Part shown: positions 30,641 to 63,100 of the stretch, in pieces
Numbering within the stretch: the first letter of the stretch is position 1
Layout: every line of letters starts with the position of its first letter
Source: Mytilus trossulus
Lineage: Eukaryota
Length of the DNA: 64,000 bases
Reading direction: 5' to 3'
NCBI RefSeq assembly: GCF_036588685.1
Contig: NC_086380.1
Span: 33,658,313 to 33,722,312 of the forward strand
Notes under the pieces: generated by a model
Databases searched by the model: none
What the model saw: only the letters and a program-made list of their open reading frames with translations
What the model was told of the DNA's origin: nothing
Program-made: the position numbers and the translations under genes

Positions 30641-32003
30641 TCAACTGATTTTTATAGTTCGTTCTTATGTTGTACTGTTATACCACTGTCCCAGGTTAGG
30701 GGGAGGGTTGGGATCCTGCTAACATGTTTAACCCCGCCACATTATTTATGTACATGCTTGTCCCAAGTCAGGAGCCTGTAATTGAGTGGTTGTCGTTTGT
30801 TTATGTGTTACATATTTGTTTTTCGTTCATTTTTTTTACATAAATAAGGCCGTTAGTTTTCTTGTTTGAATTGTTTTACATTGTCTTATCAGAACCTTTT
30901 ATAGTTGACTATGCAGTATGGGCTTTGCTCATTGTTGAAGGCTGTACAGTGACCTACATTTGTTAATGTCTGTGTCATTTTGGTCTTTTGTGGATAGTTG
31001 TCTCGGGCAGAATCAATTTGCGCCAATTGTAGTTTTGAAAAGGTATTAATTGCGCCACTATCTTTTATTTTGGTGGTATTAATTGCGCCACTAAATGAAA
31101 TGAAATTGCGCCACATTTACCTGTAAATAATTTTTACCTATATCATAAATGTATTATAATTTACCTTTCTACTTAAAATTTAACTGAACACTCGTCAAAT
31201 TTAAAAAAAAATGAATTGTTTAGTAATAGAATATTTTACACGAGTGAAGATGTCTGAAAAAGAAAAGCAACCGATATGTTGTCAAAACAACCTTCAAAAA
31301 ATAATAAATTCAGAGCTTTTCAAAATTGAAGAAAAAAATTTATAAAAGAAAGATTTAAAATATGTGCGTTAGTCAATGTATATAGAGAGAAGAAAACTCC
31401 ATTCGCCTCAACCTAAAAAACAAGCAGAATTTCACAGAATATTAGATGATATTGTGGTAATTGTTACAAACAAAGATGCTGACTTTGTATTGTTAACGAT
31501 CCAAAAAGCGGGCTAATTTTATAAGATGCGAGGCTAATTTAAAATTTATGTGTACAGTGTGTACAGAGGAAGTTTTTGCTGATGGTACCTAATACTACCT
31601 ATAAATGTTGTCAATAATATTTCAAACAACTTTATACTATACATGGCTTTAGAATAGACATTATATTCCCTTAGTAGTTTGTCTGTTGCCGTCAAAATCA
31701 GTAGCTTGTTACAAGAAAATGTTTTCCTTACTTGGTGAAAATTGCAAGAACTACCGTTCCCCAGGCCAGATAAAGGAAGAGGGAAGTCAATCATTTATAG
31801 TTGTTATAAATAAATAAAAATAAATAAAAATGGCGCAATTAGATGATTGTTTTATTGGCGCAAATGATACCTATAGTTTAGAAAATTAGGTGGCGCAAAA
31901 GAAGTATTGGCGCAATTAAGTTGTGGCGCAAATGAGTTACTTTTTGGCGCAAAAAGATATCGCCTGTTGTCTCAATGGCAATCATACCACATCTTCTTTT
32001 TAA
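30641..32003 (+). mobile_element. Dispersed MITE/SINE-like copy interrupted by a nested insertion
   Basis: The 5' part 30641-31004 ends ...tggatagttgtctc. The 3' part 31966-32003 reads gttgtctcaatggcaatcataccacatcttcttttt, the canonical terminus of the family. Confidence 0.65.
31005..31965. mobile_element. Nested non-autonomous DNA transposon (961 bp). 8-bp target-site duplication GTTGTCTC. Imperfect ~20-bp TIRs and multiple subterminal TGCGCCA repeats. hAT-like by duplication length.
   Basis: gttgtctc at 30997-31004 is duplicated at 31966-31973. The consensus host element has it once. Left subterminal a(a/t)ttgcgcca appears 4 times (31017-31117). Right subterminal (g/t)tggcgcaa appears 6 times (31831-31954). 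No internal ORF longer than 82 aa. Confidence 0.6.
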
Positions 32004-32099
32004 TGTGTTATAAAATTGTTCAGCATTGATGTAGATGTCCTCAAAATCAAACCCATTATAAACAAATAATTTAAAATGCCTATAATAATATGATCATTA

Positions 32100-36660: not shown

Positions 36661-38917
36661 TCAATGTTTAAAATAAGAAAAGTAATATCCTATAAAAAAA
36701 AATGTTGAATGTCAATGATATGAAACTCCAAATTCTTACATTATTGGACAAGTAATTTGTAGATCCTTACGGGAGTTGGACCCCCCTTTTTGGGCCGATC
36801 AATGCATTTGAATGGGGACATATAGTTGGAACCCCCCCTTTTTTTAATGGCTGGATCCGCCCCTGCTAGTACACCATGGGCTTCTCAATTCTTGTATTAT
36901 GATCTATTATCATGAACTAAGTGAAAGCATAGAGCTGACTGAGTGCGAGATCTTCTTGGATAATCATTGAGGTCATTTCACCTCTCATTTCACTAAACAT
37001 TAAATCACAGTTACAAGTGCCACAAAACTTTCCTGGCCTCTTTTCTTTAACCGTAATGATATTTTCTACTCATTTATAATCTTGAATTGAGACATATTAG
37101 GAATAATTAACACGTTACTCTGTCAAAATTACATTTTTTAAAATTTGAAATGATGCACACAGGCACAATAAAAGAAAACAAATTTTGCTATCTCTTCGAA
37201 ATTGGAATTTGGAAAAGAAGAAATATATGACATGTTATATTTTTATCATACATGAATCATGTGTATTTGTACTTTCAATTTCAATTTGGTTCTAAATTTA
37301 GATTCAGTTTTCCAATAAATTTCGGACGGAATAGAAGACACCTGTTTATTTTCTGCACATGTATAAAAAGTTGAAAACTGGAAGTTGAAGGACATAGTTT
37401 TTACTTATTCTAAGATAAATGTTTAGAGTGATCACTTTTTAGTTTACTATGAGTATATTTTTGGGGCCTAATTTGTTAACTTTTGTCTTTGTTCTTCCGA
37501 CTTGTAAGTGTTGCCCTAGACTAGTCGTCAAATTATATTCTCTTGGTATCGTCTTATTTTCTAAATTGATGTAAAACATGTCCTAAAATTTTCATTAGCA
37601 CAAAATACGAACATGTCAACGTTTTTTTAATCTAATAATTAATTTCACATGTCATTCATTAATTGTTCGGTAACCTAAAACTGTATGTTGAGTACTGTGT
37701 GTTTTTGTTCAAAACTACGGCTTGTAAAACGATATTGTTGGATCAATTCAGGTTTAATTTTAAAAATTAGATAATTAATAATAGAAGTAGAATCGTCACA
37801 TGTTTATTTATTTATAATTCTGTTGTGAGGCGTTTTTACAATCTGTTGATATCAAAAGTTTTCACACGAAATGCCTTTCATGTCCCATGCGTCTGAAACA
37901 AAAAAAAATCAACTAGTATTAAAGTCAGGCTGCACTAAACAATAGAATGCTTTGATTTCTAAATGGAGTAATTCAGATAATTTCTCATGATTAGGTTTTT
38001 TAAGACAGCATGGGCGTGCTTGTTGGATTTATGATAGACCGCACGAAGTATTTTCTCTTTACTGTGTCCTTTCTTGGAGTAAGGGAGATAACTTGCGTAA
38101 CTAACGTCGAACGTTATTAATCCCGTATTCCGCTAGGGGCGTGCAATTACGTACACTTCGCCTTAAAGGATATAACTTCTGAAATACTGTATCTATGATA
38201 TATAAAATGGGTTATATATGCGATAGGTTTTGAGAACATTGGTTAGACATCAATCCAACAACACAATTCAATCCTAAAAGGAGTAGGCTTAAAAGGTTTA
38301 AGTTGGCCCTAAGATTATTTTTTTTTAAAAATCAAGCCCAAATACTACAAATTTAACATATATATTGTTCTGGTATCATTATTGATACAAAATAAACACT
38401 TCATTTTGGCACCTGACACTATAAACTATTAAGTTATGACATCTTGATTATGCAGTTCTGGTGTATTCGCAAAAGCGCCAATTAAGGTCCAATTTTTCAC
38501 AATTCAGAACAGTTTTTAGCATATCCAGTAATAGTTTACGTCTTTTTATTTAAATACATGTATTACCCTTGGTTCCTATAAGTTACGAAACATTTTGGAT
38601 CAAAGGTATTCTTTAAGCTTTTAGGTAAGAAAATTCACAAAATTATAGCATTTTGATAATATCTCCCAATATAGCTAATTATGGAGACTACAATGTATTA
38701 TAAAGAAGCGATTTATTTTAAGTCACATTAAGTTTCTTGAAATATATCCATTTAAGATCCAAATTGGGGCCCCTTTGATATTCTATGATAAAAGTTGAAA
38801 TTTAAAATCTGTTATAAGGCCATACTTTGCCAAGAGACCATTGTCATATGATACTGATAAAATAAAGAGTATATACTGTTGACCAAACTCTTATAAACCT
38901 TTAACCCTAAAAAAGCC

Positions 38918-39200
38918 ATGGGCGTCAAGTTGGTTACCTATTCCCTATTCCCTATTCGTTACCTATTCCCTATTCCCTATTCGTTACCTATTCGTTACCT
39001 ATTCCCTATTCCCTATTCGTTACCTATTCGTTACCTATTCCCTATTCCCTATTCGTTACCTATTCGTTACCTATTCCCTATTCCCTATTCGTTGCCTATT
39101 CGTTACCTATTCCCTATTCCCTATTCGTTGCCTATTCGTTACCTATTCCCTATTCCCTATTCGTTACCTATTCGTTACCTATTCGTTACTTATTTGATTT
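38918..39200 (+). repeat. Short-unit array built from CCTATTC (7 bp) and GTTACCTATTC (11 bp)
   Basis: ggttacctattccctattccctattcgttacctattccctattccctattcgttacctattcgttacc.... ORF 38918-39223 (LPIRYLFPIPYS...) is a translation artefact of this array. The inverted twin lies at 52690-52985. Confidence 0.9.
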
Positions 39201-40093
39201 TTAATATCCATCCCCCTTTTTAATTATGGCATTGTAAAGTTTAATATGGCTGCCATGGAAACGGCACAATTGTGAAAAAAAAATATGTTTTTGGTTTTGG
39301 GTGAACTGTTTGGATATGCTTCAACTCAGAATCATCATATTTTAAAACAATGTAGGTGCCCACTATATACAGGTGTTGGATGACTTTGGCGATCATTGGT
39401 ACTACAATGTTGCCATGGAAACTACACCAAAATTTTCAAAATTCTCAAAATGCTCAAAACTTCATGAAACTTCACAGTAATGATGAGCAACAATGGTAGA
39501 TGTGGCATTTGGAGTTGGAATTTCTAAATAGGTCTTGTTTCCATGGAAACAATGCAAAAAGGTCAAAAATTTCAAAAATAAGAATTTTGAGTAAACTGGA
39601 TGAATCTTTACAGGATGGTAACTGGCATAGGCAGAGTCGGATTTTGAAGTTAAAATTTTCAAAATGGCAGCCGTAACCATGGAAACAGCAAAAATATCAA
39701 ACATTTCAAAATGTTCAAACTTAATGAAACTTTGCAAAAATGTTACTAGACATCTGTAGATGCTCTCTTTCACTTTGGAATTGTCAAAATGGCTGCCGCT
39801 CACCTGGTAATAGGGGGAAGGGTGCCATCCGTTATTGCTAGCAATTACAAATCTAGTTGTTAATACTCTTACATATGGTAATAGTTCTAAATTTGTTGAG
39901 GTAAAATGATCTTTTTATGACCTATTTATATGTGTTTGTGCTCAACCGATCCTTTTACTTCATGTTCGATACGCATTTGTTCCTTACTTGGTTTTTTTAT
40001 ACGTTCTACTTTTTAACTGCTTTATGTCCGTATGTTTGAAGATGGATCTTGGTTCGACGGGATGAAATCACCGTGTTAGCACATGCATAAAAA

Positions 40094-40352
40094 AGAAGAT
40101 GTGGTATGATTGCCAATGAGACAACACTCCACATTAGACCAAAATGACACAGAAATTATCAACTATAGTTTACTGTACGGCCTTCAACAATGAGCATAGC
40201 CCAAACCGTGTAGTCACCTATAAAAGGCCCAGGCACGATAACCTCATACAATTCAAACAACAAAATTGACCGCCGTATTTCATATACAAAAAAAACGGAA
40301 ATATGCAACACAAAAACAAACAATAACTACTTAATTTCAGGCTTATAATACG
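40094..40352 (-). mobile_element. MITE-family copy (about 260 bp) at the outer edge of the left satellite arm
   Basis: agaagatgtggtatgattgccaatgagacaacactccacattagaccaaaatgacac...gggctttgctcattgttgaaggccgtacagtaaac (reverse complement) ...cgtattataagcc. Its mirror copy lies at 51547-51805. Confidence 0.7.
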
Positions 40353-43300
40353 AGTATATTACGTTGCACCTTTTAAAACATCATTTTCAATTGTTTTGTT
40401 GTCACTGGTGGAAGATTTGGGCTCTTAGAGGTGATATAACTCTATAAGTGCATTTGTATCCGTTCCAGCGCTCGGAAAATACCCTGTTACCTATTCGTTA
40501 CTTATTCGCTTTTCCAAAGTTTTTTGTACGTTGCACCTTTTAGAAAAGAATTTTCAATTAAGTTCATATCTCTGGTGGTAATAATGTGTTCTTATAGATG
40601 AAATACCCCTATTAGCACATATTTACTCGTTCTAGCGCTCGGATAATACCCTGTTACTTATTCGTTCCTTATTTGCTTTAATGCACGGGGTATACGTTGC
40701 ACCTTGAAATAAATCGTTTTTTAATTGTGTTCATGTCTCTGGTGGTAACAATGTGTTCTTAGGGATGAGATGACCCTATTAGAGCGCATGAACCCGTTCC
40801 AGCGCTCGGTAAATAACTTGTTACCTATTCGTTACCTATTCGTTACCTATTCACTTATGATACGTTTGTTGTACGTTGCACCTTTGAGAAAAGGATTTTC
40901 TATTAAATTCATATCTCTAGTGGTAATAATGTGTTCTTATAGATGAAATACCCCTATTACCGCGTATGTACCCGTTCCAGCGCTCAGTAAATACCCTGTT
41001 ACCTATTCGTTACCTATTCACTTATAATACGTTTCTTGTACGTTGCATCTTTCAGAAAAGACTTTTCAATTGTGTCCGTGTCTCTGGTGGTAAAAATGTG
41101 TTCTTAGAGATGAAAATACCCTATTGGCGCGCATGTACCTGTCCCAGCGCTCCGTTAATAACCTGTTACCTATTCGTTACCTATTCACTTTTAATATTTT
41201 TGTTGTACGTTGCACCTTTTAGAAAAGGATTTTCAATTGTGCCCATAAGTCTGGTGGTAACAATGTGTTCTTAGAGATGAAATGACCTTATTAGCGCGCA
41301 TGTACCCGTTCCAGCGCACGGTAAATACCCTGTTACCTATTCGTTACCTATTCGTTACCTATTCACTTATAATCCGTTTGTTGTACGTTGTACCTGTTAG
41401 AAAAGGATTTTTAATTGTCTTTATGTCTCTTGTGATAACAATGTGTTCTTAGAGATGACATTACCCTATTACCGCGCATGTACCCGTTCGAGCGCTCGAT
41501 TAATACCCTGTTACCTATTCACTTATAAAACGTTTGTTGTACGTTGCACCTTTTAGAAAAGGATTTTTAATTGTCTCCATGTCTCTTGTGATAACAATGT
41601 GTTCTTAGAGATGAAATTATCCTATTAGCGCGCATGTACCCGTTTCAGCGCTAGGTAAATACCCTGTTACCTATTCGTTATCTATTCGTTACCTATTCAC
41701 TTATAGAACGTTTGTTGTACGTTGCACCTTTTAGCAAAGGATTTTCAATTAAATTCATATCTCTGGTGTTAATAATATGTTCTTAGAGATGAAAGACCCC
41801 TATTGGCGCGTATGTACCCGTTCCAGCGCTGAGTTAATACCATGTTTCTTATTCGTTCCTTATTTGCTTTTTATGCACGAGGTATACGTTGCACCTTGAA
41901 ATAAATCGTTTTTTAATTGTGTTCATGTCTCTGGTGGTAACAATGTGTTCTTAGAGATGAAATGACCCTATTAGAGCGCATGTACCCGTTCCAGCGCTCG
42001 GTAAATAACCTGTTACCTATTCGTTACTAATTCGCTTTTAATGCGCGGGGTATACGGTGCACCTTGAAATGAATCGTTTTTTAATTGTTTTCTAGTCTCT
42101 GGTGGTAAGAATGTGTTCTTAGAGATGAAATTACCCTATTAGCGCGCATGTACCCGTTCCAGCGTTCGTTTAATACCCTGTTACCTATTCGTTACCTATT
42201 CGTTACCTATTCACTTATAATACGCTTGTTGTACATTGCACCTTTTAGAAAAGGATTTTCAATTGTGCCCATGTCTCTGGTGGTAACAATGTGTTCTTAG
42301 AGATGAAATGACTCTATTAAAGCGCAAGTTCCCGTTCCAGCGCTCGGTAAATACCCTGTTACCTATTCGTTACTTATTCGCTTTTAATGCGCGGGGTATA
42401 CGGTGCACCTTGAAATAAATCGTTTTTTAATTGTGTTCATGTCTCTGGTGGTAACAATGTGTTCTTAGAGATGAAATGACCCTATTAGCGCGCATGTACC
42501 AGTTCTAGTGCTCGGTAAATAACCTGTTACCTATTCGTTACTTATTCGCTTTTAATGCGCGGGGTATACGGTTCACCTTGAAATGAATCTTTTTTTAATT
42601 GTTTTCAAGTCTCTGGTGGTAACAATGTGTTCTAAGAGATGAAATGACCCTATTAGCGCGCATGTACCCGTTCCAGCGCTCGGTTAATACCCTGTTACCT
42701 ATTCGTTACCTATTCACTTATAATACGTTTGTTGTACATTGCACCTTTTAGCAAAGGATTTTCAATTGTGCCCATGTCTCTGGTGGTAACAATGTGTTCA
42801 TAGAGATGAAATGACTCTATTAAAGCGCATGTACCCGTTCCAGCGCTCGGAAAATACCCTGTTACCTATTCGTTACTTATTCGCTTTTTAATGCGCAGGG
42901 TATACGGTGCACCTTGAAATAAATCGTTTTTTAATTGTGTTCATGTCTCTGGTGGTAACAATGTGTTCTCAGAGATGAAATGACCCTATTAGAGCGCATG
43001 TAACCGTTCCAGCGCTCGGTAAATGACCTGTTACCTATTCGTTACTTATTCGCTTTTAATGCGCGGGATATACGGTGCACCTTGAAATGAATCTTTTTTA
43101 AATTGTTTTCAAGTCTCTTGTGGTAACAATGTGTTCTTAGAGATGAGATGGCCCTATTAGAGCGCATGAGCCCGTTCCAGCGCTCGGTAAATAACTTGTT
43201 ACCTATTCGTTACCTATTCACTTATGATACGTTTGTTGTACGTTGCACCTTTGAGAAAAGGATTTTCAATTGTGCCCATGTCTCTGGTGTCAACAATGTG

Positions 43301-46218
43301 TTCTTAGAGATGAAATGACTCTATTAAAGTAAATGTACCCGTTCCAGCGCTCGGTAAAAACCCTGTTACCTATTCGTTACTTATTCGCTTTTAATGCGCG
43401 GGGTATACGGTGCACCTTGAAATAAATCGTTTTTTAATTGTGTTCATGTCTCTGGTGGTAACAATGTGTTCTTAAAGATGAAATTACCCTATTTGAGCGC
43501 ATGTACCCGTTCCAGCGCTCGGTAAATAACCTGTTACCTATTCGTTACTTATTCGCCTTTAATGTGCGGGGTATACGGTGCACCTTTAAATGAATCTTTT
43601 TTTAATTGTTTTCAAGTCTCTGGTGGTAACAATGTGTTCTTAGAGATGAAATGACCCTATTAGCGCGCATGTACCCGTTCCAGCGCTCGGATAATACCCT
43701 GTTACCTATTCGTTACCTATTCACTTATAATAAGTTTGTTGTACATTGCACCTTTTAGAAAAGGATTTTCAATTGTGCCCATGTCTCTGGTGGTAACAAT
43801 GTGTTCTTAGAGATGAAATGACTCTATTAAAGCGCATGCACCCGTTCCAGCGCTCAGTAAATAACTTGTTACCTATTCGTTACTTATTCGCTTTTAATGC
43901 GCGGGGTGTACGGTGCACCTTGAAATGAATCTTTTTTTAATTGTTTTCAAGTCTCTGGTGGTAAAAATGTGTTCTTAGAGATGAAATGACCCTATTAGCG
44001 CTTATGTACCCGTTCCAGCGTTCGGTTAATACCCTGTTACCTATTCGTTACCTATTCGCTACCTATTCACTTATAATACGTTTGTTGTACATTGCACCTT
44101 TTAGAAAAGGTTTTTTAATTGTCTACATGTCTCTTGTAGTAACAATGTGTTCTTAAAGATGAAATTACCCTATTAGCGTGCATGTACCCGTTCCAGCGCT
44201 CAGTAAATACCCTGTTACCTATTCGTTACCTATTCACTTTTAATATATTTGTTGTACGTTGCACCTTTTAGAAAAGGATTTTCAATTGTGCCCATGTCGC
44301 TGGTGGTAACAATGTGTTCTTAGAGATGAAATAACCCTATTAGCGCGCATTTACCCGTTCCAGCGTTCGGTTAATACCCTGTTACCTATTCGTTACCTAT
44401 TCACTTATAATACGTTTGTTGTACATTGCACCTTTTAGAAAAGGATTTTCAATTGTGCCCATGTCTCTGGTGGTAACAATGTGTTCTTAGAAATGAAATG
44501 ACTCTATTAGAGCGCATGTACCCGTTCCAGCGCTCGGTAAATAACTTGTTACCTATTCGTTACTTATTCGCTTTTAATGCGCGGGGTGTACGGTGCACCT
44601 TGAAATGAATCGTTTTTTTAATTGTTTTCAAGTCTCTGGTGGTAACAATGTGTTTTTAGAGATGAAATGACCCTATTAGCGCGCATGTACCCGTTCCAGC
44701 GTTCGGTTAATACCCTGTTTCCTATTCGTTACCTATTCGCTACCTATTCGTTACCTATTCGTTACCTATTCACTTATAATACGTTTGTTGTACGTTGCAC
44801 CTTTTAAAAAAGGATTTTCAATTGTGCCCATGTCTCTGGTGGTAACAATGTGTTCTTAGAGATGAAATGACCCTATTACAGCGCATGTACCCGTTCCAGC
44901 GCTTGGTAAATAACCTGTTACCTATTCGTTACCTATTCGCTTTTGATGCGCGGGGTATACGGTGCACCTTCAAATACATCTTTTTATAATTGTGTTCATG
45001 TCTCTAATGGTAACAATTTGTTCTTAGAGATGAAATGACCCTATAAGAGCGCATGAACCCGTTCCAGCGCTCGGTTAATACCCTGTTACCTATTCGTTAC
45101 CTATTCGTTACCTATTCACTTATAATACGTTTGTTGTACGTTGCACCTTTTAGAAAAGGATTTTTAATAGTCTCCATGTCTCTTGTGGTAAAAATGTGTT
45201 CTTAGAGATGCAATTACCCTATAAGCGCCCATGTACCCGTTCTAGCGCTCAGTAAATACCCTGATACCTATTCGTTACCTATTCACTTATAATACGTTTG
45301 TTGTACGTTGCACCTTTTAGAAAAGGAATTTCAATTGTGTCCGTGTCTCTGGTGGTAACGATGTGTTCTTAGAGATGAAATGACCCTATAAGAGCGCATG
45401 AACCCGTTCCAGCGCTCGGTTAATAACCTGTTACCTATTCGTTACCTATTCGTTACCTATTCACTTATAGTACGTTTGTTGTACGTTGCACCTTTAAGAA
45501 AAGGATTTTCAATTAAATTCATATCTCTGGTGGTAACGATGTGTTCTTATAGATGTATTACCCCTATAAGATTGCATGTACCCATTCCAATGCTCGGTTA
45601 ATACCCTGTTACTTATTCGTTACCTATTCGTTACTTATTCGCTTTCAATATGTTTGTTGTACGTTGCACCTTTTCAAAAAGGATTTTCAATTGTGCCCAT
45701 GTCTCTGGTAGTAACAATATGTTCTTAGAGGTGAAATAACTCTATTGGAGCGCATGTACCCGTTCCAGCGCTCGGTAAATAACTTGTTACCCATTCGTTA
45801 CTTATTCGCTTTTAATGCGCGGGGTGTACGGTGCACCTTGAAATGAATCGTTTTTTAATTGTTTTCAAGTCTCTGGTGGTAACAATGTGTTCTTAGAGAT
45901 GAAATGACCCTTTTAGCGCGCTGTACCCGTTCCAGCGTTCGGTTAATACCCTGTTACCTATTCGTTACCTATTCGTTACCTATTCACTTATAGTACGTTT
46001 GTTGTACGTTACACCTTGTAGAAAAGGATTTTCAATTAAATTCATATCTCTGGTGGTAATAATGTGTTCTTGTAGATGAAATACTCCTATTAGCGCGTAT
46101 GTATCCGTTCCAGCGCTCAGTTTATACCCTGTTTCTTATTCGTTCCTTATTTGCTTTTTATGCACGAGATATACGTTGCACCTTGAAATAAATCGTTTTT
46201 TTATTGTGTTGATGTCTC
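40353..46218 (+). repeat. Satellite DNA with a ~156-190-bp monomer (about 34 copies). Monomer subtypes A, B and B' form a ~510-bp higher-order repeat in places.
   Basis: catgtacccgttccagcgc recurs with periods 178, 156, 178 and 168. Each monomer contains 1-4 copies of gttacctattc. Subtype A reads ...cacttataatacgtttgttgtacgttgcaccttttagaaaaggattttcaattgtgccc. Subtype B reads ...cgcttttaatgcgcggggtatacggtgcaccttgaaataaatcgttttttaattgtgttc. B' reads ...gaaatgaatctttttttaattgttttcaag. The order A-B-B' repeats about 3.5 times across 42000-43900. Confidence 0.9.
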
Positions 46219-49200
46219 TGGGTTTCATCTCTAAGAACACATTGTTACTATTAGAGACATGAACACAATTATAAAAAGATGTATTTGAAGGTGCACCGTA
46301 TACCCCACGCATCAAAAGCGAATAGGTAACGAATAGGTATCAGGTTATTTACCAAGCGCTGGAACGGGTACATTTGCTCTAATAGTGTCATTTCATCTCT
46401 AAGAACACATTGTTACCACCAGAGACATGTGCACAATTGAAAATCCTTTTTTAAAAGGTGCAACGTACAACAAACATATTGAAAGCGAATAAGTAACGAA
46501 TAGGTAACAGGGTATTAACCGAGCGCTTGAACGGGTACATGCGGGCTAATAGGGTCATGTCATCTCTAAGAACACATTGTTACCACCAGAGACACACACA
46601 CAATTGAAAATCCTTTCCTAAAAGGTGCAACGTACAACAAACGTATTATAAGTGAATAGGTAACGAATAGGTAACAGGGTATTTACTGAGCGCTGGAACG
46701 GGTACATGCAATCTTATAGGGGTAATACATCTATAAGAACACATCGTTACCACCAGAGATATGAATTTAATTGAAAATCCTTTTCTTAAAGGTGCAACGT
46801 ACAACAAACGTACTATAAGTGAATAGGTAACGAATAGGTAACGAATAGGTAACAGGGTATTAACCGAGCGCTGGAACGGGTTCATGCGCTCTTATAGGGT
46901 CATTTCATCTCTAATAAAATTGAGAATGGAAATGGGGAATGTGTCAAAGAGACAACAACCCGACCAAAATAAAATAAAAAACACAACAGCAGAAGGTCAC
47001 CAACAGGTCTTCAATGTAGCGAGAAATTCCCGCACCCGGAGGTGTCCTTCAGCTGGCCCCCAAACAAACATATACTAGTTCAGTGATAATGAACGCCATA
47101 CTTATTTCCAAATTGTACACAAGAAACTAAAATTTAAATAATACAAGACTAACAAAGGCCAGAGGCTCCTGACTTGGGATAGGCGCAAAAATGCAGCGGG
47201 GTTAAACATGTTTGTGAGATCTCAACCCTCCCCCTAAGAACACATTGTTACCACCAGAGACACGGACACAATTGAAAATCCTTTTCTAAAAGGTGCAACG
47301 TACAACAAACGTATTATAAGTGAATAGGTAACGAATAAGTATCAGGGTATTTACTGAGCGCTAGAACGGGTACATGGGCGCTTATAGGGTAATTTCATCT
47401 CTAAGAACACATTGTTACCACAAGAGACATGGAGACAATTAAAAATCCTTTTCTAAAAGGTGCAACGTACAACAAACGTATTATAAGTGAATAGGTAACG
47501 AATAGGTAACAGGGTATTAAACGAGCGCTGGAACGGGTTAATGCGCTCTTATAGGGTCATTTCATCTCTAAGAACACATTGTTACCATTAGAGACATGAA
47601 CACAATTATAAAAAGATGTATTTGAAGGTGCACCGTATACCCCGCGCATCAAAAGCGAATAGGTAACGAATAGGTAACAGGTTATTTACCAAGCGCTGGA
47701 ACGGGTACATGCGCTCTAATAAGGTCATTTCATCCCTAAGAACACATTGTTACCACCAGAGACATGGGCAATTGAAAATCCTTTTTTAAAAGGTGCAACG
47801 TACAACAAACGTATTAAAAGCGAATAAGTAACGAATAGGTAGCGAATAGGTAACGAATAGGTAGCGAATAGGTAACGAATAGGTAACAGGGTATTAACCG
47901 AACGCTGGAACGGGTACATGCGCGCTAATAGGGTCATTTCATCTCTAAGAACACATTGTTACCACCAGAGACTTGAAAACAATTAAAAAAACGATTCATT
48001 TCAAGGTGCACCGTACACCCCGCGCATTAAAAGCGAATAAGTAACGAATAGGTATCAAGTTATTTACCGAGCGCTGGAACGGGTACATGCGCTCTAATAG
48101 AGTCATTTCATCTCTAAGAACACATTGTTACCACCAGAGACATGGGCACAATTGAAAATCCTTTTCTAAAAGGTGCAATGTACAACAAACGTATTATAAG
48201 TGAATAAGTAACGAATAGGTAACAGGGTATTAACCGAGCGCTGGAACGGGTACATGCGCGCTAATAGGGTCATTTCATCTCTAAGAACACATTGTTACCA
48301 CCAGAGACTTGAAAACAATTAAAAAAAGATTCATTTCATGGTGCACCGTATACCCCGCGCATTAAAAGCGAATAAGTAACGAATAGGTTATAGGTTATTT
48401 ACCGAGCGCTGGAACGGGTACATGCGCTCTTATAGGGTCATTTCATCTCTAGGAACACATTGTTACCACCAGAGACATGAACACAATTAAAAAACGATTT
48501 ATTTCAAGGTGCACCGTATAACCAGCGCATTAAAAGCGAATAAGTAACGAATAGGTAACAGAGTTTTTACCGAGCGCTAGAACGGGTACATGCGCTTTAA
48601 TAGAGTCATTTCATCTCTAAGAACACATTGTTACCACCAGAGACATGGGCACAATTGAAAATCCTTTTCTAAAAGGTGCAATGTACAACAAACGTATTAT
48701 AAACGAATAGGTAACGAATAGGAAACAGGCCTAGGGTATTAACCTAACGCTGGAACGGGTACATGCGCGCTAATAGGGTCATTTTATCTCTAAGAACACA
48801 TTGTTACCACCAGACTTATGGGCACAATTGAAAATCCTTTTCTAAAAGGTGCAACGTACAACAAATATATTAAAAGTGAATAGGTAACGAATAGGTTACA
48901 TATTATTAACGGAGCGCTGGGACGGGAACATGCGCGCCAATAGGGTATTTTCATCTTTAAGAACACATTTTCACCACCAGAGACACGGACACAATTGAAA
49001 ATTCTTTTCTAAAAGATGCAACGTACATGAAACGTATTATAAGTGAAAAGGTAACGAAAAGGTAACAGGGTATTAACTGAGCGCTGGAACGGGTACATAC
49101 GCGGTAATAGGGGTATTTCATCTATAAGAACACATTGTTACCACCAGAGACTTGAAAACAATTAAAAAAAGATTCATTTCAAGGTGCACCGTATACCCCG

Positions 49201-51546
49201 TGCATTAAAAGCGAATAAGTAACGAATAGGTAACAGGTTATTTACCGAGCGCTGGAACGGTTACATGCGCTCTAATAGGGTCATTTCATCTCTAAGAACA
49301 CATTGTTATCACCAGAGACATGAACACAATTAAAAAACGATTTATTTCAAGGTGCACCGTATACCCCGCGCATTAAAAAGCGAAAAAGTAACGAATAGGT
49401 AACAGGGTATTAACCGAGCGCTGGAACGGGTACATGCGCTTTAATAGAGTCATTTCATCTCTAAGAACACATTGTTACCAGCAGAGACATGGGCACAATT
49501 GAAAATCCTTTTCTAAAAGGTGCAATGTACAACAAACGTATTATAAGTGAATAGGTAACGAATTGGTAACAGGGTATTAACCGAGCGCTGGAACGGGTAC
49601 ATGCGCGCTAATAGGGTCATTTCATCTCTAAGAGCACATTGTTACCACCAGAGACATGAACACAATTAAAAAACGATTTATTTTAAGGTGCACCGTATAC
49701 CCCGCGCATTAAAAGCGAATAAGTAACGAATAGGTAACAGGGTATTTACCGAGCGCTGGAACGGGTACATGCGCTTTAATAGAGTCATTTCATCTCTAAG
49801 AACACATTGTTACCACCGGAGACATGTAGACAATTAAAAAACCTTTTCTAAAAGGTGCAATGTACAACAAACGTATTATAAGTGAATAGGTAACGAATAG
49901 GTAACGAATAGGTAACAGGGTATTAACCGAACGCTGGAACGGGTACATGCGCGCTAATAGGGTACTTTCATCTCTAAGAACACATTCTTACCACCAGAGA
50001 CTTGAAAACAATTAAAAAACGATTCATTTCAAGGTGCACCGTATACCCCGCGCATTGAAAGCGAATTAGTAACGAATAGGTAACAGGTTATTTACCGAGC
50101 GCTGGAACGGGTACATGCGCTCTAATAGGGTCATTTCATCTCTAAGAACACATTGTTACCACCAGAGACATGAACACAATTAAAAAACGATTCATTTCAA
50201 GGTGCAACGTATACCTCGTGCATAAAAAGCAAATAAGGAACGAATAAGAAACAGGGTATTAACTGAGCGCTGGGACGGGTACATACGCGCCAATAGGGGT
50301 CTTTCATCTCTAAGAACACATTATTAACACCAGAGATATGAATTTAATTGAAAATCCTTTGCTAAAAGGTGCAACGTACAACAAACGTTCTATAAGTGAA
50401 TAGGTAACGAAAAGGTAACGAATAGGTAACAGGGTATTTACCTAGCGCTGAAACGGGTAAATGCGCGCTAATAGGATAATTTCATCTCTAAGAACACTTT
50501 GTTATCACAAGAGACATGGAGACAATTAAAAATCCTTTTCTAAAAGGTGCAACGTACAACAAACGTATTTTAAGTGAATAGGTAACAGGGTATTAACCGA
50601 GCACTGGAACGGGTACATGCGCGGTATGGGGTAATGTCATCTCTAAGAACACATTGTTATCACAAGAGACATAAAGACAATTAAAAAAGGTGCAACGTAC
50701 AACAAATATATTAAAAGTGAATAGGTAACGAATAGGTAACAGGTTATAAACGGAGCGCTGGGACGGGTACATGCGCGCCAATAGGGTATTTTCATCTCTA
50801 AGAACACATTTTTACCACCAGAGACACTGACACAATTGAAAATTCTTTTCTAAAAGATGCAACGTACAAGAAACGTATTATAAGTGAATAGGTAACGAAT
50901 AGGTAACAGGGTATTTACTGAGCGCTGGAACGGGTACATACGCGGTAATAGGGGTATTTCATCTATTAGAACACATTATTACCACTAGATATATGAATTT
51001 AATAGAAAATCCTTTTCTCCAAGGTGCAACGTACAACAAACGTATCATAAGTGAATAGGTAACGAATAGGTAACGAATAGGTAACAAGTAATTTACCGAG
51101 CGCTGGAACGGGTTCATGCGCTCTAATAGGGTCATCTCATCTCTAAGAACACATTGTTACCACCAGAACACAATTAAAAAACGATTTATTTCAAGGTGCA
51201 ACGTATACCCCGTGCATTAAAAGCAAATAAGGAACGAATAAGTAACAGGGTATTATCCGAGCGCTAGAACGAGTACATATGTGCTAATAGGGGTATTTCA
51301 TCTATAAGAACACATTATTACCACCAGAGATATGAACTTAATTGAACATTCTTTTCTAAAAGGTGCAACGTACAAAAAACTTTTGAAAAGCGAATAAGTA
51401 ACGAATAGGTAACAGGGTATTTTCCGAGCGCTGGAACGGATACAAATGCACTTATAGAGTTATATCACCTCTAAGAGCCCAAATCTTCCACCAGTGACAA
51501 CAAAACAATTGAAAATGATGTTTTAAAAGGTGCAACGTAAGATGTT
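46219..51546 (-). repeat. The same satellite in reverse-complement orientation, about 29 monomers, interrupted by a 319-bp insertion
   Basis: gggtcatttcatctctaagaacacattgttaccaccagagacatg...gcgctggaacgggtacatgcgc is the reverse complement of the forward monomer. Higher-order order B'-B-A is visible around 47940-50200. Confidence 0.9.
46915..47233 (+). mobile_element. SINE-like element (319 bp) inserted into the satellite with a CTAA target-site duplication (or TAA)
   Basis: The satellite consensus catttcatctctaagaacac here reads catttcatctCTAA[taaaattgagaatggaaatgggg...gagatctcaaccctcccc]CTAAgaacac. The insert is about 90% identical to 15875-16183. It is absent from the corresponding position of the other palindrome arm. 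Confidence 0.8.
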
Positions 51547-51805
51547 CGTATTATAAGCCTGAAATTAAGTAGTTATTGTTTGTTTTTGTGCTACATATTT
51601 CCGTTTTTGTTTGTATATGAAATACGGCGGTCAATTTTGTTGTTTGAATTGTATGAGGTTGTCATGCCTGTGCCTTTTATAGGTGACTTCACGGTTTGGG
51701 CTTTGCTCATTGTTGAAGGCCGTACAGTAAACTATAGTTGATAATTTCTGTGTCATTTTGGTCTAATGTGGAGTGTTGTCTCATTGGCAATCATACCACA
51801 TCTTC
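51547..51805 (+). mobile_element. MITE-family copy, mirror of 40094-40352
   Basis: cgtattataagcctgaaattaagtag...gggctttgctcattgttgaaggccgtacagtaaac...ggagtgttgtctcattggcaatcataccacatcttc. Confidence 0.7.
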
Positions 51806-52689
51806 AAGTGCTAACACGGTGATTTCATCCCGTCGAACCAAGATCCATCTTCAAACATATGGACATAAAGCAGTTAAAAAGTAGAACGTATAAAAAAAAA
51901 CAAGTAAGGAACAAATGCGTATCGAACATGAAGTAAAAGGATCGATTGAGCACAAACACATATAAATAGGTCATAAAAAAATCATTTTACCTCAACAAAT
52001 TTAGAACTATTACCATATGTAAGAGTATTAACAACTAGATTTGTAATTGCTAGCAATAACGGATGGCACCCTTCCCCCTATTACCAGGTGCGCGGCAGCC
52101 ATTTTGACAATTCCAAAGTGAAAGAGAGCATTTACAGATGTCTAGTAACATTTTTGCAAAGTTTCATTAAGTTTGAACATTTTGAAATGTTTGATATTTT
52201 TGCTGTTTCCATGGTTACGGCTGCCATTTTGAAAATTCTAACTTCAAAATCCGACTCTGCCTATCTATGCCAGTTACCATCCTGTAAAGTTTCATCCAGT
52301 TTACTCAAAATTCTTATTTTTGAAATGTTTGACCTTTTTGCATTGTTTCCATGGTAACAAGACCTATTTTGGAAATTCCAACTCCAAATGCCACATCTAC
52401 CATTGTTGCTCATCATTGCTGTGAAGTTTCATGAAGTTTTGAGCATTTTGAGAATTTTGAAAATTTTGGTGTAGTTTCCATGGCAACATTGTAGTTCCAA
52501 TGATCGCCAAAGTAATCCAACACCTGTATATAGTGGGCGCCTACATTGTTTTAAAATATGATGATTCTGAGTTGAAGCATATCCAAACAGTTCACCCAAA
52601 AAAAAACAGATTTTTTTTCACAATTGTGCCGTTTCCATGGCAGCCATATTAAACTTTTCAATGCCATAATTAAAAAGGGGGAAGGATAT

Positions 52690-52985
52690 TAAAAATCAAA
52701 TAAGTAACGAATAGGTAACGAAAAGGGAATAGGTAACGAATAGGTAACGAATAGGGAATAGGGAATAGGTAACGAATAGGCAACGAATAGGGAATAGGGA
52801 ATAGGTAACGAATAGGCAACGAATAGGGAATAGGGAATAGGTAACGAATAGGTAACGAATAGGGAATAGGGAATAGGTAACGAATAAGTAACGAATAGGG
52901 AATAGGGAATAGGTAACGAAAAGGTAACGAATAGGGAATAGGGAATAGGTAACGAATAGGGAATAGGGAATAGGTAACCAACTTG
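52690..52985 (-). repeat. 7/11-mer array (GAATAGG / GAATAGGTAAC), reverse complement of 38918-39200
   Basis: aataggtaacgaataggtaacgaaaagggaataggtaacg.... ORF 52670-53011 is an artefact. Confidence 0.9.
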
Positions 52986-53465
52986 ACGCCCATAAAAAAG
53001 CCAGTATTCATTTTAAAATAATCTTATTTATAGATTTTTTTTTTTAAACAGGATTAACAATACTGGTACCTACCTACATATTAGCTGTATTTGACCACCA
53101 AGTCTTATTCCCACACCATGAAAACATGCCACAGAAAGTACCTAAAAAGAAATTAACACATTTATTAATTTTACAAACCAATTTCTATGTCAACCTAAAG
53201 ATTGATTTACACATTTTTCTGATTTCTTACTTCAAGTACCAATAGTATAAAATCCACATATTTGGTAAAGATTGAAAAACAAACAAAAGTAGTCAAGGTT
53301 TATGATTTGAATTCTGCACTCAACTAATTTGAATAATGAAAATGAGTTGTCTCCCATTGAATGAACAAATCTTGCTGTTAATTGTGCTAGTCTCCCCTTG
53401 AAAGTTAATTCCTATCTTAGAATTTACTCCTGCAATTGTAATAGAAATTCTTGTTAATGTACAAT

Positions 53466-58439: not shown

Positions 58440-58990
58440 TCCTCTCAGACTATCATTTGATTGTAAGAAGCTTCTGTCCAAGTTTGGTAAAAATCCAGAA
58501 TAGTTTATGAATCTAATAATTGTTTTAAAAACTTTAACTTCAGAATATAAGGTTAACTAAGTCCATTAATAAGCAAAATACGGAAAAACAGGAAATAAGT
58601 TTTAACTATTTTTTGTCTAGATACTAGCTTTTGATCATAAACAAGCTTCTATCTAAGTTTGTTACAAATCCAGAATTTTTGAAGAAAGTTATTAAAATTT
58701 TAAAAACTTTAGTGAATGTATTGTATCCTGGCATTTATAAGTAGAATATGGAAAAATTAATTTGTTTCATTTACAAAATTTACTTCTGGGTACTATCTTA
58801 TGATCATATACAAGCTTAGGTGGAAGTTTTAGAAATCCAGAATAGTTTTAGAAAGTTATAAAAATTTCAAAAAACTTAAACTAAAGAGTGAATTTTTGTG
58901 ATCGCCAATGATGACGCTGCTGACAGAATGTAGGATGGCCAAGTCTCATGTTTTTTTCAATTAAAGTTGAAGGCTCGACAAAAAGTATTA
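58440..58990 (+). repeat. S180-family tandem array (3 units of about 170-180 bp) plus terminal flank
   Basis: cttctgtccaagtttggtaaaaatccagaatagttt occurs at 58471, 58646 and 58813. The terminal flank is ...aaaaaacttaaactaaagagtgaatttttgtgatcgccaatgatgacgctgctgacagaatgtaggatggcc...gttgaaggctcgacaaaaag. Confidence 0.8.
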
Positions 58991-59048
58991 ATGGTTTAAA
59001 AAGAATGTTAAATAAAATTTGTTGAATAGTGTTTAATCAAATTTTGCA

Positions 59049-59275
59049 GAGGTACATGCTTCCAATTGGCTTCCCTCAGAGTTACATGCCTCTAATTGGG
59101 ACCGCGCTGCCAGGGGTACTGCTTCTAATTAGCTTTAGCAGACAGAGGTATATATGTACTGCTTCAAATCAGCTTCGCAACAAGACAGAGGGTATGTGCT
59201 CCCAATTAGCTTCACTAAGAGGTACATGCTTCCAATTGGCTTCGCTCAGACAAACGTACTGCTTCCAGTGTCGAA
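59049..59275 (+). repeat. Degenerate minisatellite, about 32-40-bp unit (GAGGTACATGCTTCCAATTGGCTTCSCTCAGA), about 7 copies
   Basis: Recurring (g)aggtacatgcttccaattggcttc / gtactgcttc.aat.agcttc units. ORF 59029-59313 is an artefact. Confidence 0.8.
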
Positions 59276-59559
59276 ATGGTACGGTATGCAAGTCTGTACT
59301 ATATCCAGCCTAGTAAATGGTACATAATTGCAAGTCAAATGTCGTCCAAATATACAAAAACATATTTTATTTAACATTCTTGATCTAGTTTATTTTCGCA
59401 TCTACCTTCACTCTCCTATTTATAATTTATCCTGATGGTGACATTGTGAAATGCAAATTATCATTACAGGATTCTGCAGTTCCCTATAGTGTCAATCCTG
59501 ATGAAGGTGCCATAGGATCCAAAATATGGCTATCTTATCAAATTCACTTTAGCAATCCC

Positions 59560-60150
59560 TTAATTTTTTTTATTATCTTTTGATTAAAAGAAGCATGTCC
59601 TAGTTCTGTCAAAGTTTGGTAAAAATCCAGAATAGTTTATGAATTTAATAAATATTTTAAAAACTTTAACAGCAGACTGAATGTTATGTTAACTTGAAGA
59701 AAAACTAAGTCAGTTATAAGTGAAAAATACAGAAAAATGGAATTTTATTTTTACAAAATTTACTTCTGGGTACATGTACTATCTTATCATCATAAACAAG
59801 CTTTGGTCCAAGCTTGGTACAAATCCAGGAGAGTTTAAGAAAGTTATCAAAGTTTTTAAAACTTTAACCACAGAGTGAATGTAATATTTCCCAGGAGAAA
59901 AACTAAGTCCAGTTACAAGTAAAATACGAAGAAATGGAATGTTATTTTTACAATATTTACTTCTGAATACTATCTTATGATCATTTACAAACTTCTGTCC
60001 AAGTTTGGTATAAATCCAGGATAGTTTAAGAAAGCTATTAAAATTTTAAAAACGTTAACCACAGAGTGAATATTTGTGGACGATGCCAATGACGGAATGT
60101 AGGATCGCTATGTGTCACTTTTTCAACTTAAGTCAAAGGCTCGACAAAAG
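59560..60150 (+). repeat. Second S180-family array (3 units of about 190 bp) plus terminal flank
   Basis: Units occur at about 59605, 59801 and 59992. The flank is ...aaaaacgttaaccacagagtgaatatttgtggacgatgccaatgacggaatgtaggatcgct...gtcaaaggctcgacaaaagg. Confidence 0.8.
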
Positions 60151-63100
60151 GAGGATCCAACCTCTCCAGAACTCCCACCCTCTGAATCTACCACTGCCCC
60201 TAAAGTATGGTACATGATCTAATTTGAACCTGCTTAGTTATAAAAAAGAAGATGAGGTATGATTGCCAATGAGACAACTATCCACTATCCACTAAAGACC
60301 AAAATGACACAAACATTAACAATTATAATATGTTTAAAGTGAATATTGTATGCAATTTTTAAAAGAAATATAAGGGGAATTTCGAAAAGAAATGTCAAAA
60401 TCTTGTCATGATGAGTAATTGTTAAATGTGACGAAAAAGTTAAAATTAAAAATAGTTGTTAATTATGTACTGATAATTATAAACCAAATAGTTATACCAA
60501 ACATTTTTAAGAATTACACTGATTTTAGAAAAATATGATGCCGAATGGACAAATGTCATTTTTAGAAATTTCTTAATTAAATTAAATTTGAAACAAGTTA
60601 TCTCCCTTGCTTAAAAGTAAAAGTTTTCAGCTGTGTAAAGACAAAGCAAAGAAACAAACAACTATTTCGCTTAAATACAACATTCGAGGCTAATTGATGA
60701 AACTTGATTACAAATATTTTTCAACCAAATGTGAATACTGTGGATTCCTTATTATTGACAGTTTTTTTTATTATTATTATTCATGTGAATGACAAATTTT
60801 AGGTTTTCACAAAATTATTTTTTGGGGGATTTGTATGGAGAATTTGTAAAATGTCTGAATGAAAGCATATTATTGGGGGTTAGAGTTAAAAATGAACCCA
60901 AGAATGATATATTTGAAGCAAAATAATTAGATACTTCTGTTTAATACTAGGGATTTTTATCTAAATAACTCTGGGAAATGATGATAGTTTCAGATAAATA
61001 AGAATGAAGGTTTAAGGGGGGTATTTGAAATGATTTAAATACTTGTTCTTCCCACTTGGTCAAAGCATTAAGTGAATTTAATTTAAAAGGTAGATTATAA
61101 TTTTGAAATGTTACTTTTACTTCACCATTATCTTGTTAGCAATCAGTGCTTTTAAGAAACAGATACCCTGAAATAATTTTGATGACGCTTAAGTATATAA
61201 CATTTTGGGTAATTTTTCACAATAAGGTATTTGAATTCAATCTAAGATACAAATATATTTTTAATATTTTGGTTTCCAATACATCATAATATGTCAAATA
61301 TAATTTAGAATTTGATTAAAGACCTTTGTTTTTGACATTGTTTCGAAAATTATAAAACTTTTTTACAGATTTAAGCTCAAAATTATAATTTTTTTAATAC
61401 TTAAATTACCAAACAAATATCAAATATTTTCATTTCAGAATTACATATAAAGATTCCCTCAAAAGCAGAACACCATATCCTGAACACTTGAAAACCATGA
61501 CACCATTCAAAGAACCAATGAAAAAACAAAAGAAACAACCAGACCCTAGCAACTGCAAGCTACTCCAAAGAGAAACTATGTTAGTAATAGATAAGAAACG
61601 CAGCGCTCTGAGCTCAATGTATTTCTGAAATGGTCATTTGATATTTGCTTAGTCTTCAAAAAAAAAATCAAGATGAACATTAATGTTCAGCTATGAAACT
61701 TTAAATGCAGATGACAAACTTTAATTTAGTTTCAAGTACAAATGTACTGTTATTCTCCAATTTGACAATCAAGATGTATTGAAAACAGTAAAATATTTAG
61801 GGAAGTTGTTAAATTACAAAACTGAAATTTCAGTTTTATCATTTAAACGAGTGTATCACCAAAAACTGCATGAATTGTTTTGAAAATTTCAACCACCCGA
61901 AAGCACTAACAATGCAAACAAGACAATGTTTAAAAATGTTTTATAAATATCTGTTGATCATTTGATCCAAGGACCTTAAACTGTTTTACAACCTAATAAA
62001 CCTCATCCTAAGTTATTTCAACTATCACCCTTTCTGCATTGATCAATTTGATAAAGAAATTAAATAAATGGGCGTTCCACTCTGGGTTAATCTCCAACCT
62101 CTTTTTTAGCTTCAAATGTTGTTGCATATATAAGTATGGAGATTTGTCACATTGGCACTCATACCACATCTTCCTATATATATCAATTTAACTATTGAAA
62201 TTGATGGGCAAACCATTTTGCTGCATTTCAGAAGAAAATCTTGTTCAATGGTTAAATAGTGTTGTAATCAAATTAAATCAATCTTCTTCCACGGTTTTAT
62301 CATTTAATATCCAGTTTTTAATGTATATTATAATTTGTATGCCTGAATCTTTTTTTGAGTTTTTTTCGGTCAAATTTCTAACTTGGTTGTTCACATGAAA
62401 TGCTTAATAAAAATCTCTGTCATTTATGTATTCAAGCTGAATATGTTCTCAAATAAAATACTTTTTGGTAATTTTTAAATATGAAATGAAAATTATTCCA
62501 GAATCCACCGACAAGAATCAAATAAGTACCACTTGTATTTATATCGGCATATTTATCTTAATATTTTTAAATTATGAGAAGGTGTCCATGGCTTTAATTA
62601 ATCAAATTATTATTTGGCTACAGTTAAAAATTATTGGATGAAAACTTTTACAACAACAAAAAAATGCTCGACATAATCTTCCAGAATCGTTGATGGTGAA
62701 TGTTTGGGATAATCATAAATATTTTTTTTTATTACAATATCAACTAATTTCAGAAATTCAAAATCTTATTCAATTAATCTGAACCAAACCATATTTTCCC
62801 CAATTACTAAATACTTTGCAGACATATCTTAATTTTCAAGCAGTTTTTTACCACTTCCCAAGGGTAAAATATACATGAATTTGATCTTGGCATAGTGTAC
62901 CTGAATTTTACTTCACAAATTTAGAGCAAAATTGCATCATTTGTTGAAATACCATATCGTATTGATACCCTTATTTTATACAACTTGCCTCCCCTTCTAA
63001 TTTAGTGAATTTTTATTTCGCTACTCAGTGGCAGAATCCAGAACTTTTCATGAGGGGGCCCCCTCTAGTCATACTACAGTGATTCCTTATATAATCAACC

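Follow-up and report, generated by a model that had tools for sequence, protein, structure and literature searches.

The 14-kb palindrome at positions 38918–52993 of a 64-kb stretch of contig NC_086380.1 (hereafter the window; all positions are counted within it) is probably a single, non-autonomous DNA transposon of the foldback type, built of two very long terminal inverted repeats (TIRs) that meet head to head. We favor this reading because the architecture is mirrored, the termini are identical, a 9-bp duplication brackets the element, coding capacity is lacking, and modular variant copies exist.

Architecture and insertion site

The left arm (38918–46221, 7.3 kb) and the right arm (46222–52993, 6.8 kb) are inverted copies that lie head to head with no middle domain. 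They are mirror-collinear over their whole length, and the long TIRs make up most or all of the element, as is characteristic of foldback transposons. A BLAST comparison of the two halves aligned 38918–44068 with 52993–47855 on the minus strand (5229 columns, 89.5% identity), and the AT skew changes sign at 46 kb, from about -0.2 to +0.2. A preliminary description of this DNA had recognized ~7-kb arms mirrored around 46218; the alignment agrees and places the center at 46221/46222.

The ends of the element are sharp. Both arms start at a shared terminal base (ATGGGCGTCAAGTTGG.../ATGGGCGTCAAGTTGGTTACCTATTC, at 38918 and 52993), and the DNA beyond these positions consists of two outer flanks unrelated to each other. 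Immediately outside each end lies the 9-mer AAAAAAGCC, giving the junctions ...CCCT AAAAAAGCC / ATGGGCG ... CGCCCAT / AAAAAAGCC AGTATT; the wider target reads ...CCTTTAACCCT to the left of AAAAAAGCC and AGTATTCATTTT... to the right of it. The two 9-mers are perfect, have the same orientation and are the only occurrences in 64 kb, with a chance probability of 6e-6 to about 1e-5 from base composition. Arms that end at the same base, together with a 9-bp direct repeat, argue for staggered-cut integration of a TIR element, and a target-site duplication of about this length is expected of foldback elements. Duplication in situ by fold-back or template switching, the joining of two separate copies and an assembly error of the fold-back kind would leave no such footprint. 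The alternative of a terminus shorter by one base and a duplication of 10 bp (TAAAAAAGCC) was considered and rejected, as the related contig L008, described below, assigns the A to the element. Exact look-ups of the open reading frames (ORFs) in the flanks, made for an empty allele, found nothing on record.

The features of the element and its borders are as follows, in order of position. TRF (Tandem Repeats Finder) and nhmmer are the programs behind the repeat counts; MITE and SINE stand for miniature inverted-repeat transposable element and short interspersed element.

38909–38917 (no strand): left 9-bp target-site duplication AAAAAAGCC, a direct repeat just outside the element end
38918–38932 (+): left terminus ATGGGCGTCAAGTTG, the outermost 15 bp, identical in both arms
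38933–39184 (+): left terminal array of 36-bp units, each CCTATTC twice plus GTTACCTATTC twice (TRF period 36, 7.0 copies, 97% matches)
39226–39858 (+): left extra module of ~630 bp, degenerate ~130–140-bp repeats around GCCATGGAAAC; in both arms and contig L003, absent from contigs L008 and L009
39859–40094 (+): left degenerate satellite monomer(s); 39890–40088 aligns to ~1.2 consensus monomers
40095–40341 (+): left MITE/SINE-like fragment, 247 bp, with partial copies elsewhere in the window
40361–46221 (+): left satellite array, 34 monomers of ~167–179 bp plus a 49-bp stub (nhmmer; TRF period 167–168)
46219–46252 (no strand): asymmetric center, the head-to-head array junction (...TCTCTGG/GTTTCATCTC...), from the sequence and the arm-to-arm alignment
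46222–51538 (-): right satellite array, 29 monomers plus a 78-bp stub, broken by a 317-bp insertion (nhmmer)
46917–47233 (no strand): dispersed 317-bp repeat within one monomer, right arm only, with CTAA on each side
51558–51805 (-): right MITE/SINE-like fragment, from the arm-to-arm match
51806–52032 (-): right degenerate monomer region, mirror of 39859–40094
52033–52667 (-): right copy of the ~630-bp module, mirror of the left module
52699–52978 (-): right terminal 36-bp array, one half-unit (an 18-bp indel) longer than the left (TRF)
52979–52993 (-): right terminus, the reverse complement of ATGGGCGTCAAGTTG, identical in both arms
52994–53002 (no strand): right 9-bp target-site duplication AAAAAAGCC, a direct repeat just outside the element end

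From the outside inward, each arm thus passes from the 15-bp terminus through the 36-bp array, the ~630-bp module, decayed monomers and the MITE/SINE-like fragment into the satellite, with a flank of ~1.17 kb between array and satellite and 5.3–5.9 kb of satellite. The repeats simplify toward the tip, from homogeneous ~168-bp monomers to degenerate monomers, then to the 36-bp array of 7- and 11-mers and the 15-bp terminus, and, as in foldback elements, the arms are made of tandem sub-repeats and have a separate flanking domain on the outside. The 7/11-mer array that had been noticed in each arm is present at both tips with a period of 36 (about 7 copies, 95–97% matches by TRF). Its 11-mer, GTTACCTATTC, has 115 exact matches in the window, all within the element, with 66 on the plus strand in the left arm and 49 on the minus strand in the right arm; shuffled sequences give an expected count of 0.02. 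The same 11-mer is common to the tip array and the monomers, with two to three copies per monomer. The decayed monomers are recognizable at 57% identity to the consensus (39890–40088; z of 5.9 against 300 shuffles). The ~630-bp module has no similarity to the satellite monomer and may have been inserted as a repeat in its own right; no duplication could be recognized on either side of it. An 86% copy of the module lies in contig L007 (218–560).

The satellite is confined to the element. A monomer profile gave 68 nhmmer matches in the window, all within 40361–51538, and the counts of 34 and 29 monomers, each with a stub, reproduce the earlier estimate of about 34 versus about 29. Several-kilobase inverted sub-arrays of one satellite have been described in Tribolium as macro-dyad symmetries (PMC13081366), and the palindrome could by the same token be a piece of (peri)centromeric satellite, as had been suggested at first. 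We consider this highly improbable. The satellite amounts to only 11 kb, it is bounded by non-satellite arm sequence and then by unrelated DNA within the window, no array surrounds it, and a target-site duplication is present; such symmetries have so far been documented only in Tribolium (PMC13081366). Nothing in the window speaks for a centromeric or pericentromeric domain: all the satellite sits inside the 14-kb element, amid ordinary AT-rich, repeat-rich, non-coding DNA.

The element has no ORF longer than 113 aa, and an ORF survey of the whole 64-kb window, which has a GC content of about 0.32 and many dispersed and tandem repeats, found none above 139 aa and no credible coding sequence; these features mark the DNA as eukaryotic. 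Protein searches with the element's ORFs returned no homolog with an annotated function. Scans of the whole window found no Rfam family and no tRNA, so that a tRNA-derived SINE head for the inserted repeats is not supported.

Relatives of the element and the link to Helentron-like units

All relatives recovered come from marine metagenome or run assemblies and lie in contigs of 3 kb or shorter. A scan of metagenome contigs with a conserved 20-mer of the monomer returned three real relatives (L002–L004), and protein searches with spurious ORFs of the element added four more short contigs; the same kind of search with the remaining two frames of the array and with a satellite ORF retrieved nothing. 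Exact patterns of the terminus (a 22-mer and a 20-mer) had no match in the metagenome collection and none in the viral collection, and the one match in the genome collection, in a metagenome-assembled genome of a rumen Bacteroidales, is taken as chance. Satellite 19/20-mers found nothing in viral contigs except one match, also taken as chance, and no paper with the monomer or MITE-like sequence strings was found in literature full text.

The relatives are modular variants of the arm. L003 carries the array, the extra module, a decayed monomer, the MITE fragment and three monomers; its identity is 93.6% with the left arm and 92.7% with the right. L004 matches L003 at 98.8% over 1.1 kb before it diverges inside the flank. 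L002 holds the MITE fragment and 2.6 monomers, followed by unrelated DNA. L004 is interrupted at 1136–2212, near the equivalent of window position 39842, by unrelated sequence with palindromic GGCCAATACAG motifs, which is probably a different transposon lodged within the element. Compared with L003 and L004, both window arms lack ~120 bp at the inner border of the MITE fragment, and this shared deletion makes the two arms each other's closest relatives; they also share the extra module and the MITE-like fragment.

These contigs modify two points of the preliminary description. The flank of each arm, presented there as a unique 1.2-kb segment, is indeed present in both arms with a length of ~1.17 kb; it is not unique, as metagenome contigs hold copies of it and its inner part is a degenerate monomer. 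Likewise, the supposed 260-bp MITE is a repeat piece found in both arms, yet it is a truncated fragment of a dispersed repeat with no ends of its own here. The fragment is absent from L009, in which the same region reads straight through into the decayed monomer, indicating that it is a secondary insertion inherited by the window arms. Other members of this dispersed MITE/SINE-like family (GAAGATGTGGTATGATTGCCAATGAGACAAC...) lie at 9263–9620, 17179–17252, 28643–28922, 30633–31004, 31965–32005 and 60239–60327, and none of these copies outside the arms adjoins satellite monomers.

Contig L008 bears most directly on the terminus. It contains ATGGACGTCAAGTTGGTTACC, the array and a short flank without the 630-bp module, and then continues at 93.9% identity to 39854–40343. 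Its terminus has one mismatch (ATGGACGTCAAGTTGG), which is why the exact scan missed it, and its homology begins at exactly the same base as that of the window element. Upstream lie 303 bp of a ~500-bp repeat unit unlike the flank in the window. The same terminal base next to a different flank means that the terminus is a discrete end in two contexts. Together with the arm copies in L002–L004, this is suggestive of copies at different sites, as a mobile element would have; however, L008 and L009 share their upstream context. For an L008-type insertion, the far end would be expected to read ...CCAACTTGACGTCCAT, then GTCAAGATC, then TATCTGCCC.

The shared context is a Helentron-like one. L009 is a distant relative (its monomers are ~74% identical), and its array comes after TTTTCTCATCACTTGG, a (TCG/CGTCCGT)n microsatellite and 230 bp of the first ~500-bp unit. 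The array starts at the same position (...CAAGATC) of this ~500-bp HINE-like unit in both contigs (L008 1–303; L009 355–630; window counterpart 22971–23274), so that the junction is either old or site-specific. An ancient insertion common to both, a preferred target site or a composite element would account for it. HINEs are Helentron-derived elements of bivalves, and the window holds a HINE-type left flank of its own at 24100–24200, where a sub-terminal inverted repeat (subTIR) and an inverted-repeat (IR) hairpin AGCTCAC...GTGAGCT are followed by a microsatellite and then by ~500-bp units, a layout that matches that of oyster HINEs (PMC7492417).

The palindrome might accordingly be read as two partial Helentron/HINE-like copies lying tail to tail in opposite orientation, each truncated at a module border, with the block of array, flank and satellite as their rolling-circle tandem-repeat module. 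The block does follow a HINE-type left flank or unit in L009 and L008, with the same flank in the window at 24100–24200; its layout of array, variable spacer and ~160–170-bp repeats resembles that of Crassostrea HINEs (PMC7492417); and a further HINE-like pair lies head to head in the window at 21.5–25.4 kb. Helitron-type elements, however, make no target-site duplication (PMC7492417), and a 9-bp one is present here. The left flank of such elements (5' subTIR, complementary IR and microsatellite) and their right flank (3' subTIR and palindrome) are missing from both arms, which open with ATGGGCGTCAAGTTG followed directly by the array, contain no IR and no right flank, and end in abutting arrays. 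Two independent truncations at the same base plus a chance 9-bp repeat would be improbable, and the arms share their monomer order at 96%. We therefore judge this origin improbable.

The additional pair just mentioned is a third inverted structure of the window (21519–25374). Its ~500-bp tandem units lie on the plus strand at 21741–23715 and on the minus strand at 24196–25323, with center-facing microsatellites, (ACG/ACGG)n at 23716–23757 and (CGTCCGT)n at 24146–24194, HINE-type left flanks (AGCTCACCTG...GGTCAAGTGAGCT TTTTCTCATCACTTGG) and outer ends CTAGAGGCTCTnAAGAGCCTGTGTCGCTCACCT at 21519–21553 and 25340–25374. It resembles a head-to-head pair of Helentron/HINE-like elements. Contig L010, from a Tara Oceans assembly (ERR1726620), has tandem ~60-bp units at 1–947 with the motif GAAGTTGGCTACCTGTTACCTATTC, to be compared with AAGTTGGTTACCTATTC of the terminus, and small inverted junctions near 200–240 and 600–640; it may represent a distant foldback-like family in another marine organism.

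Divergence between the arms, the center and the weight of the evidence

The two arms have diverged as copies of some age would. Over 1430 aligned bases of the non-satellite flank, 1399 match, with 31 substitutions (four of them in CpG context) and 8 indel events, giving 97.8% identity where about 97% had been estimated. Monomers keep their mirrored order: the 22 collinear partner pairs have a mean identity of 0.961, against 0.812 (standard deviation 0.059) for the other 896 left-by-right pairs. Monomers were gained or lost between the arms at L05/L06 versus R05, L12, R15–R16 and L20–L23 (L and R here number the monomers of each array). The insertion described for the right arm alone is the 317-bp repeat at 46917–47233; the left partner of the interrupted monomer is intact and otherwise ~98% identical, and another copy of the repeat lies at 15875–16185 (88.8%). 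This ~317-bp family (TAAAATTGAGAATGGAAATGGGG...CTCAACCCTCCCC), with a further piece at 13226–13316, has neither TIRs nor a head resembling a tRNA. The 3' part of the repeat (GTTAAACATGT...CAACCCTCCCCCTAA) is similar to the tail of the MITE-like repeats in the arms, so that the two families may be related.

These differences bear on the possibility that the palindrome is an assembly artefact, produced by a chimeric fold-back read or by a false join, through the satellite, between two loci or haplotypes. Assemblies are prone to errors in palindromes and satellite arrays, and the junction at the center can be verified only by reads. Such an artefact is nevertheless very unlikely. It should leave near-identical arms with outer flanks that are reverse complements of each other, and the flanks are unrelated. 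Between the arms, the flank has diverged by 2.2% substitutions (31 of them, against 8 indels), the monomer count differs by five, and one side has an insertion of its own, complete with a flanking repeat. Nor would the erroneous joining of two loci combine differing outer flanks with a matching 9-bp duplication. The first impression of a real, somewhat aged palindrome, as opposed to a trivial fold-back read, is upheld by the 2.2% flank divergence, most of it substitutions, and the arms also fall short of complete identity in the five-monomer difference and in the 317-bp insertion with its 4-bp flanking repeat.

Identity is not uniform along the arms. Moving inward, it stays high as far as about 45583 in the left arm and 46700 in the right; closer to the center, the last 640 bp of the left arm and 480 bp of the right are mirrored at only ~85–88%, with a monomer indel. 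Across the pairs, identity rises with distance from the center (Spearman 0.45, p 0.035) and is lowest beside it. A gradient of gene conversion toward the center, which had been proposed as a check, is thus absent; the trend is the opposite. The junction itself, ...GATGTCTCTGG/GTTTCATCTCTAAG at 46221/46222, includes ~29–35 bp present only once, in keeping with the ~28-bp unmirrored center originally reported, and shows at most 2 nt (GG) of microhomology. A microhomology switch at the internal short inverted repeat of the monomer (TCATGTCTCT...AGAGATGA) was considered and rejected, as the actual junction lies elsewhere, with an overlap of no more than these 2 nt.

An asymmetric center of ~30 bp with so little microhomology is what an in situ inverted duplication would leave, in which one satellite locus is copied by fold-back priming or template switching and the center marks the switch point; that the arms are each other's closest relatives agrees with it as well. 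This origin, favored in the preliminary description, is not supported and appears unlikely. Copying would run outward to a second breakpoint and would not end both arms at the same base, and it creates no 9-bp direct repeat of flanking DNA such as the one that brackets the element. The monomers adjoining the center should be as similar as the others, and they are the least similar (85–88%). Finally, L008 shows this terminus as a discrete end. Fold-back may instead have produced the arms of an ancestral element, before transposition.

Under the foldback-transposon reading, a possible course of events can be outlined. A transposase provided in trans would have excised and reinserted the element in one piece; the 9-bp duplication points to a Mutator/Foldback-like enzyme, which would recognize the terminus, the 11-mer GTTACCTATTC of the array and of every monomer, or both. 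After insertion, the arms would have diverged by ~2%, their monomer number would have changed through unequal exchange, and one arm would have gained the 317-bp repeat. The center may then have been remodeled by asymmetric deletion, or palindrome "revision"; long palindromes are commonly remodeled by asymmetric central deletion. The element would thereby act as a vehicle that moves a multi-kilobase satellite array to new genomic sites. A more tentative extension is that the ~168-bp satellite itself consists of expanded sub-terminal repeats bound by the transposase, as each monomer carries two to three of the terminal 11-mers, and that whole arrays are transposition-competent and seed new satellite loci; we regard this as possible but doubtful. 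If it were true, foldback transposition would be a second route of satellite dispersal in bivalve-like genomes, distinct from Helentrons.

Several points weigh against a free-standing foldback transposon. No transposase or autonomous partner was found in the window or the retrieved contigs, and the superfamily (Mutator/Foldback) is suggested by the length of the duplication alone. The data contain a single complete, two-ended copy with one duplication. The innermost 0.5–0.65 kb of each arm is poorly mirrored, implying that the present center is not the original one, and the center junction is known from the assembly alone. L009 lacks the terminal 15 bp. In both L008 and L009 the array follows the same position of a Helentron/HINE-like unit, and from this arrangement of sequences the block of array, flank and satellite could be a module of a larger composite element. 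Insertion of a foldback element into a HINE-like unit, either once long ago or site-specifically, is more parsimonious than a composite module, given the 9-bp duplication and the lack of a HINE flank in the window copy. On the more tentative extension outlined above, the element might also preferentially target, or recombine with, Helentron/HINE repeat units.

Other repeats of the window lie outside the palindrome. A second long element, at 4465–15241, has inverted ends of ~480 bp (4465–4961 versus 15241–14862, ~95%) that start with (A)CACTACCAATAATT and in which a 26-bp tandem unit (TCAGTACTGATTTTGACAGTACTGTT) is repeated 10–14 times. The layout resembles that of a CACTA/En-Spm-type element with arrays of sub-terminal repeats; the element showed neither an ORF nor a clear target-site duplication. 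Short tandem arrays unrelated to the palindrome occur at 18889–19879 (units of 160 bp and of 126–135/261 bp) and at 58468–60149 (~191-bp units, with a related piece at 21338–21469). Several of the dispersed repeats of the window seem to resemble those of mytilid bivalves, a resemblance to be taken as a lead only.

Comparison with known foldback and satellite-bearing elements

Foldback elements with satellite-bearing arms are already known; arms of 7 kb are exceptionally long. The FB elements of Drosophila melanogaster, said to have been described by Truett et al. in 1981 and Potter in 1982, reportedly have inverted repeats of variable length, up to several kilobases. Their arms reportedly consist wholly of tandem sub-repeats that simplify toward the termini, with many copies lacking a central loop and a duplication of 9 bp. 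All four features (variable long inverted repeats, sub-repeats that simplify toward the tip, no central loop and a 9-bp duplication) are seen in the window element. FB repeats have units of 10, 20 and 31 bp grouped into 155 bp, and their transposase, FB4, is a relative of Mutator/Phantom. Here, in contrast, the units are a 36-bp array and 168-bp monomers of unrelated sequence, and no counterpart of the FB4 transposase was identified.

Tetris of Drosophila virilis (Dias et al. 2014, PMC4079207) is non-autonomous, has no ORFs and has a suggested affiliation to Mutator. In its long TIRs, an outer flanking domain precedes tandem repeats of ~220 bp, which vary in number and also occur as satellite arrays; its target-site duplications are 8–10 bp long, and its copies are modular and rearranged (PMC4079207). 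The corresponding features of the window element are its flanking domain, its arrays of 29–34 monomers (~168 bp each), its 9-bp duplication and the modular variation seen among L003, L004, L008 and L009. It differs in its arms, which are ~4 times longer (7 kb versus up to 1.7 kb), and in having no middle or inner domain. Its tip is a 7/11-mer array whose 11-mer recurs in every monomer, its sequence has no similarity to Tetris, and its host is another one, apparently a marine invertebrate and probably bivalve-like. No foldback element from a mollusc is described in the searchable literature, and bivalve papers only cite Tetris.

The satellite carriers described in bivalves are the Helentron-derived HINE, pearl, MgE and DTC84 elements, which carry a short-repeat segment, a variable spacer and ~160–170-bp repeats (PMC7492417). 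HINEs have a left flank with a subTIR and an IR and a right flank with a 3' palindrome, produce no target-site duplication, and bear arrays of few monomers in a single orientation (PMC7492417). The window element shares with them the kind of genome it inhabits and the combination of a short-repeat segment and a ~160–170-bp array within a mobile element, and its relatives in L008 and L009 are linked to a HINE-type left flank. Unlike HINEs, it is without those flanks, has two inverted arrays of ~30 monomers and carries the 9-bp duplication. With the macro-dyads of Tribolium it shares multi-kilobase inverted sub-arrays of one satellite that have hairpin or cruciform potential; the Tribolium structures sit in megabase (peri)centromeric arrays with recurrent, conserved inversion sites (PMC13081366), in contrast to the isolated and bounded 14-kb insertion seen here.

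How satellites spread to new chromosomal sites is a live question, and the carriers documented in bivalves are only Helentron-type elements with short arrays. At the locus described here, a 5–6-kb satellite array is present twice, inverted, and a cut-and-paste mechanism apparently placed it there in one piece. Satellite palindromes of kilobase size in assemblies of invertebrates thus need not mark centromeres or assembly errors, and a look for a target-site duplication at the outer ends quickly tells the cases apart. If confirmed genome-wide, the element would extend the model drawn from Tetris and FB, in which foldback arms act as satellite nurseries, outside the insects and to arms of exceptional length.

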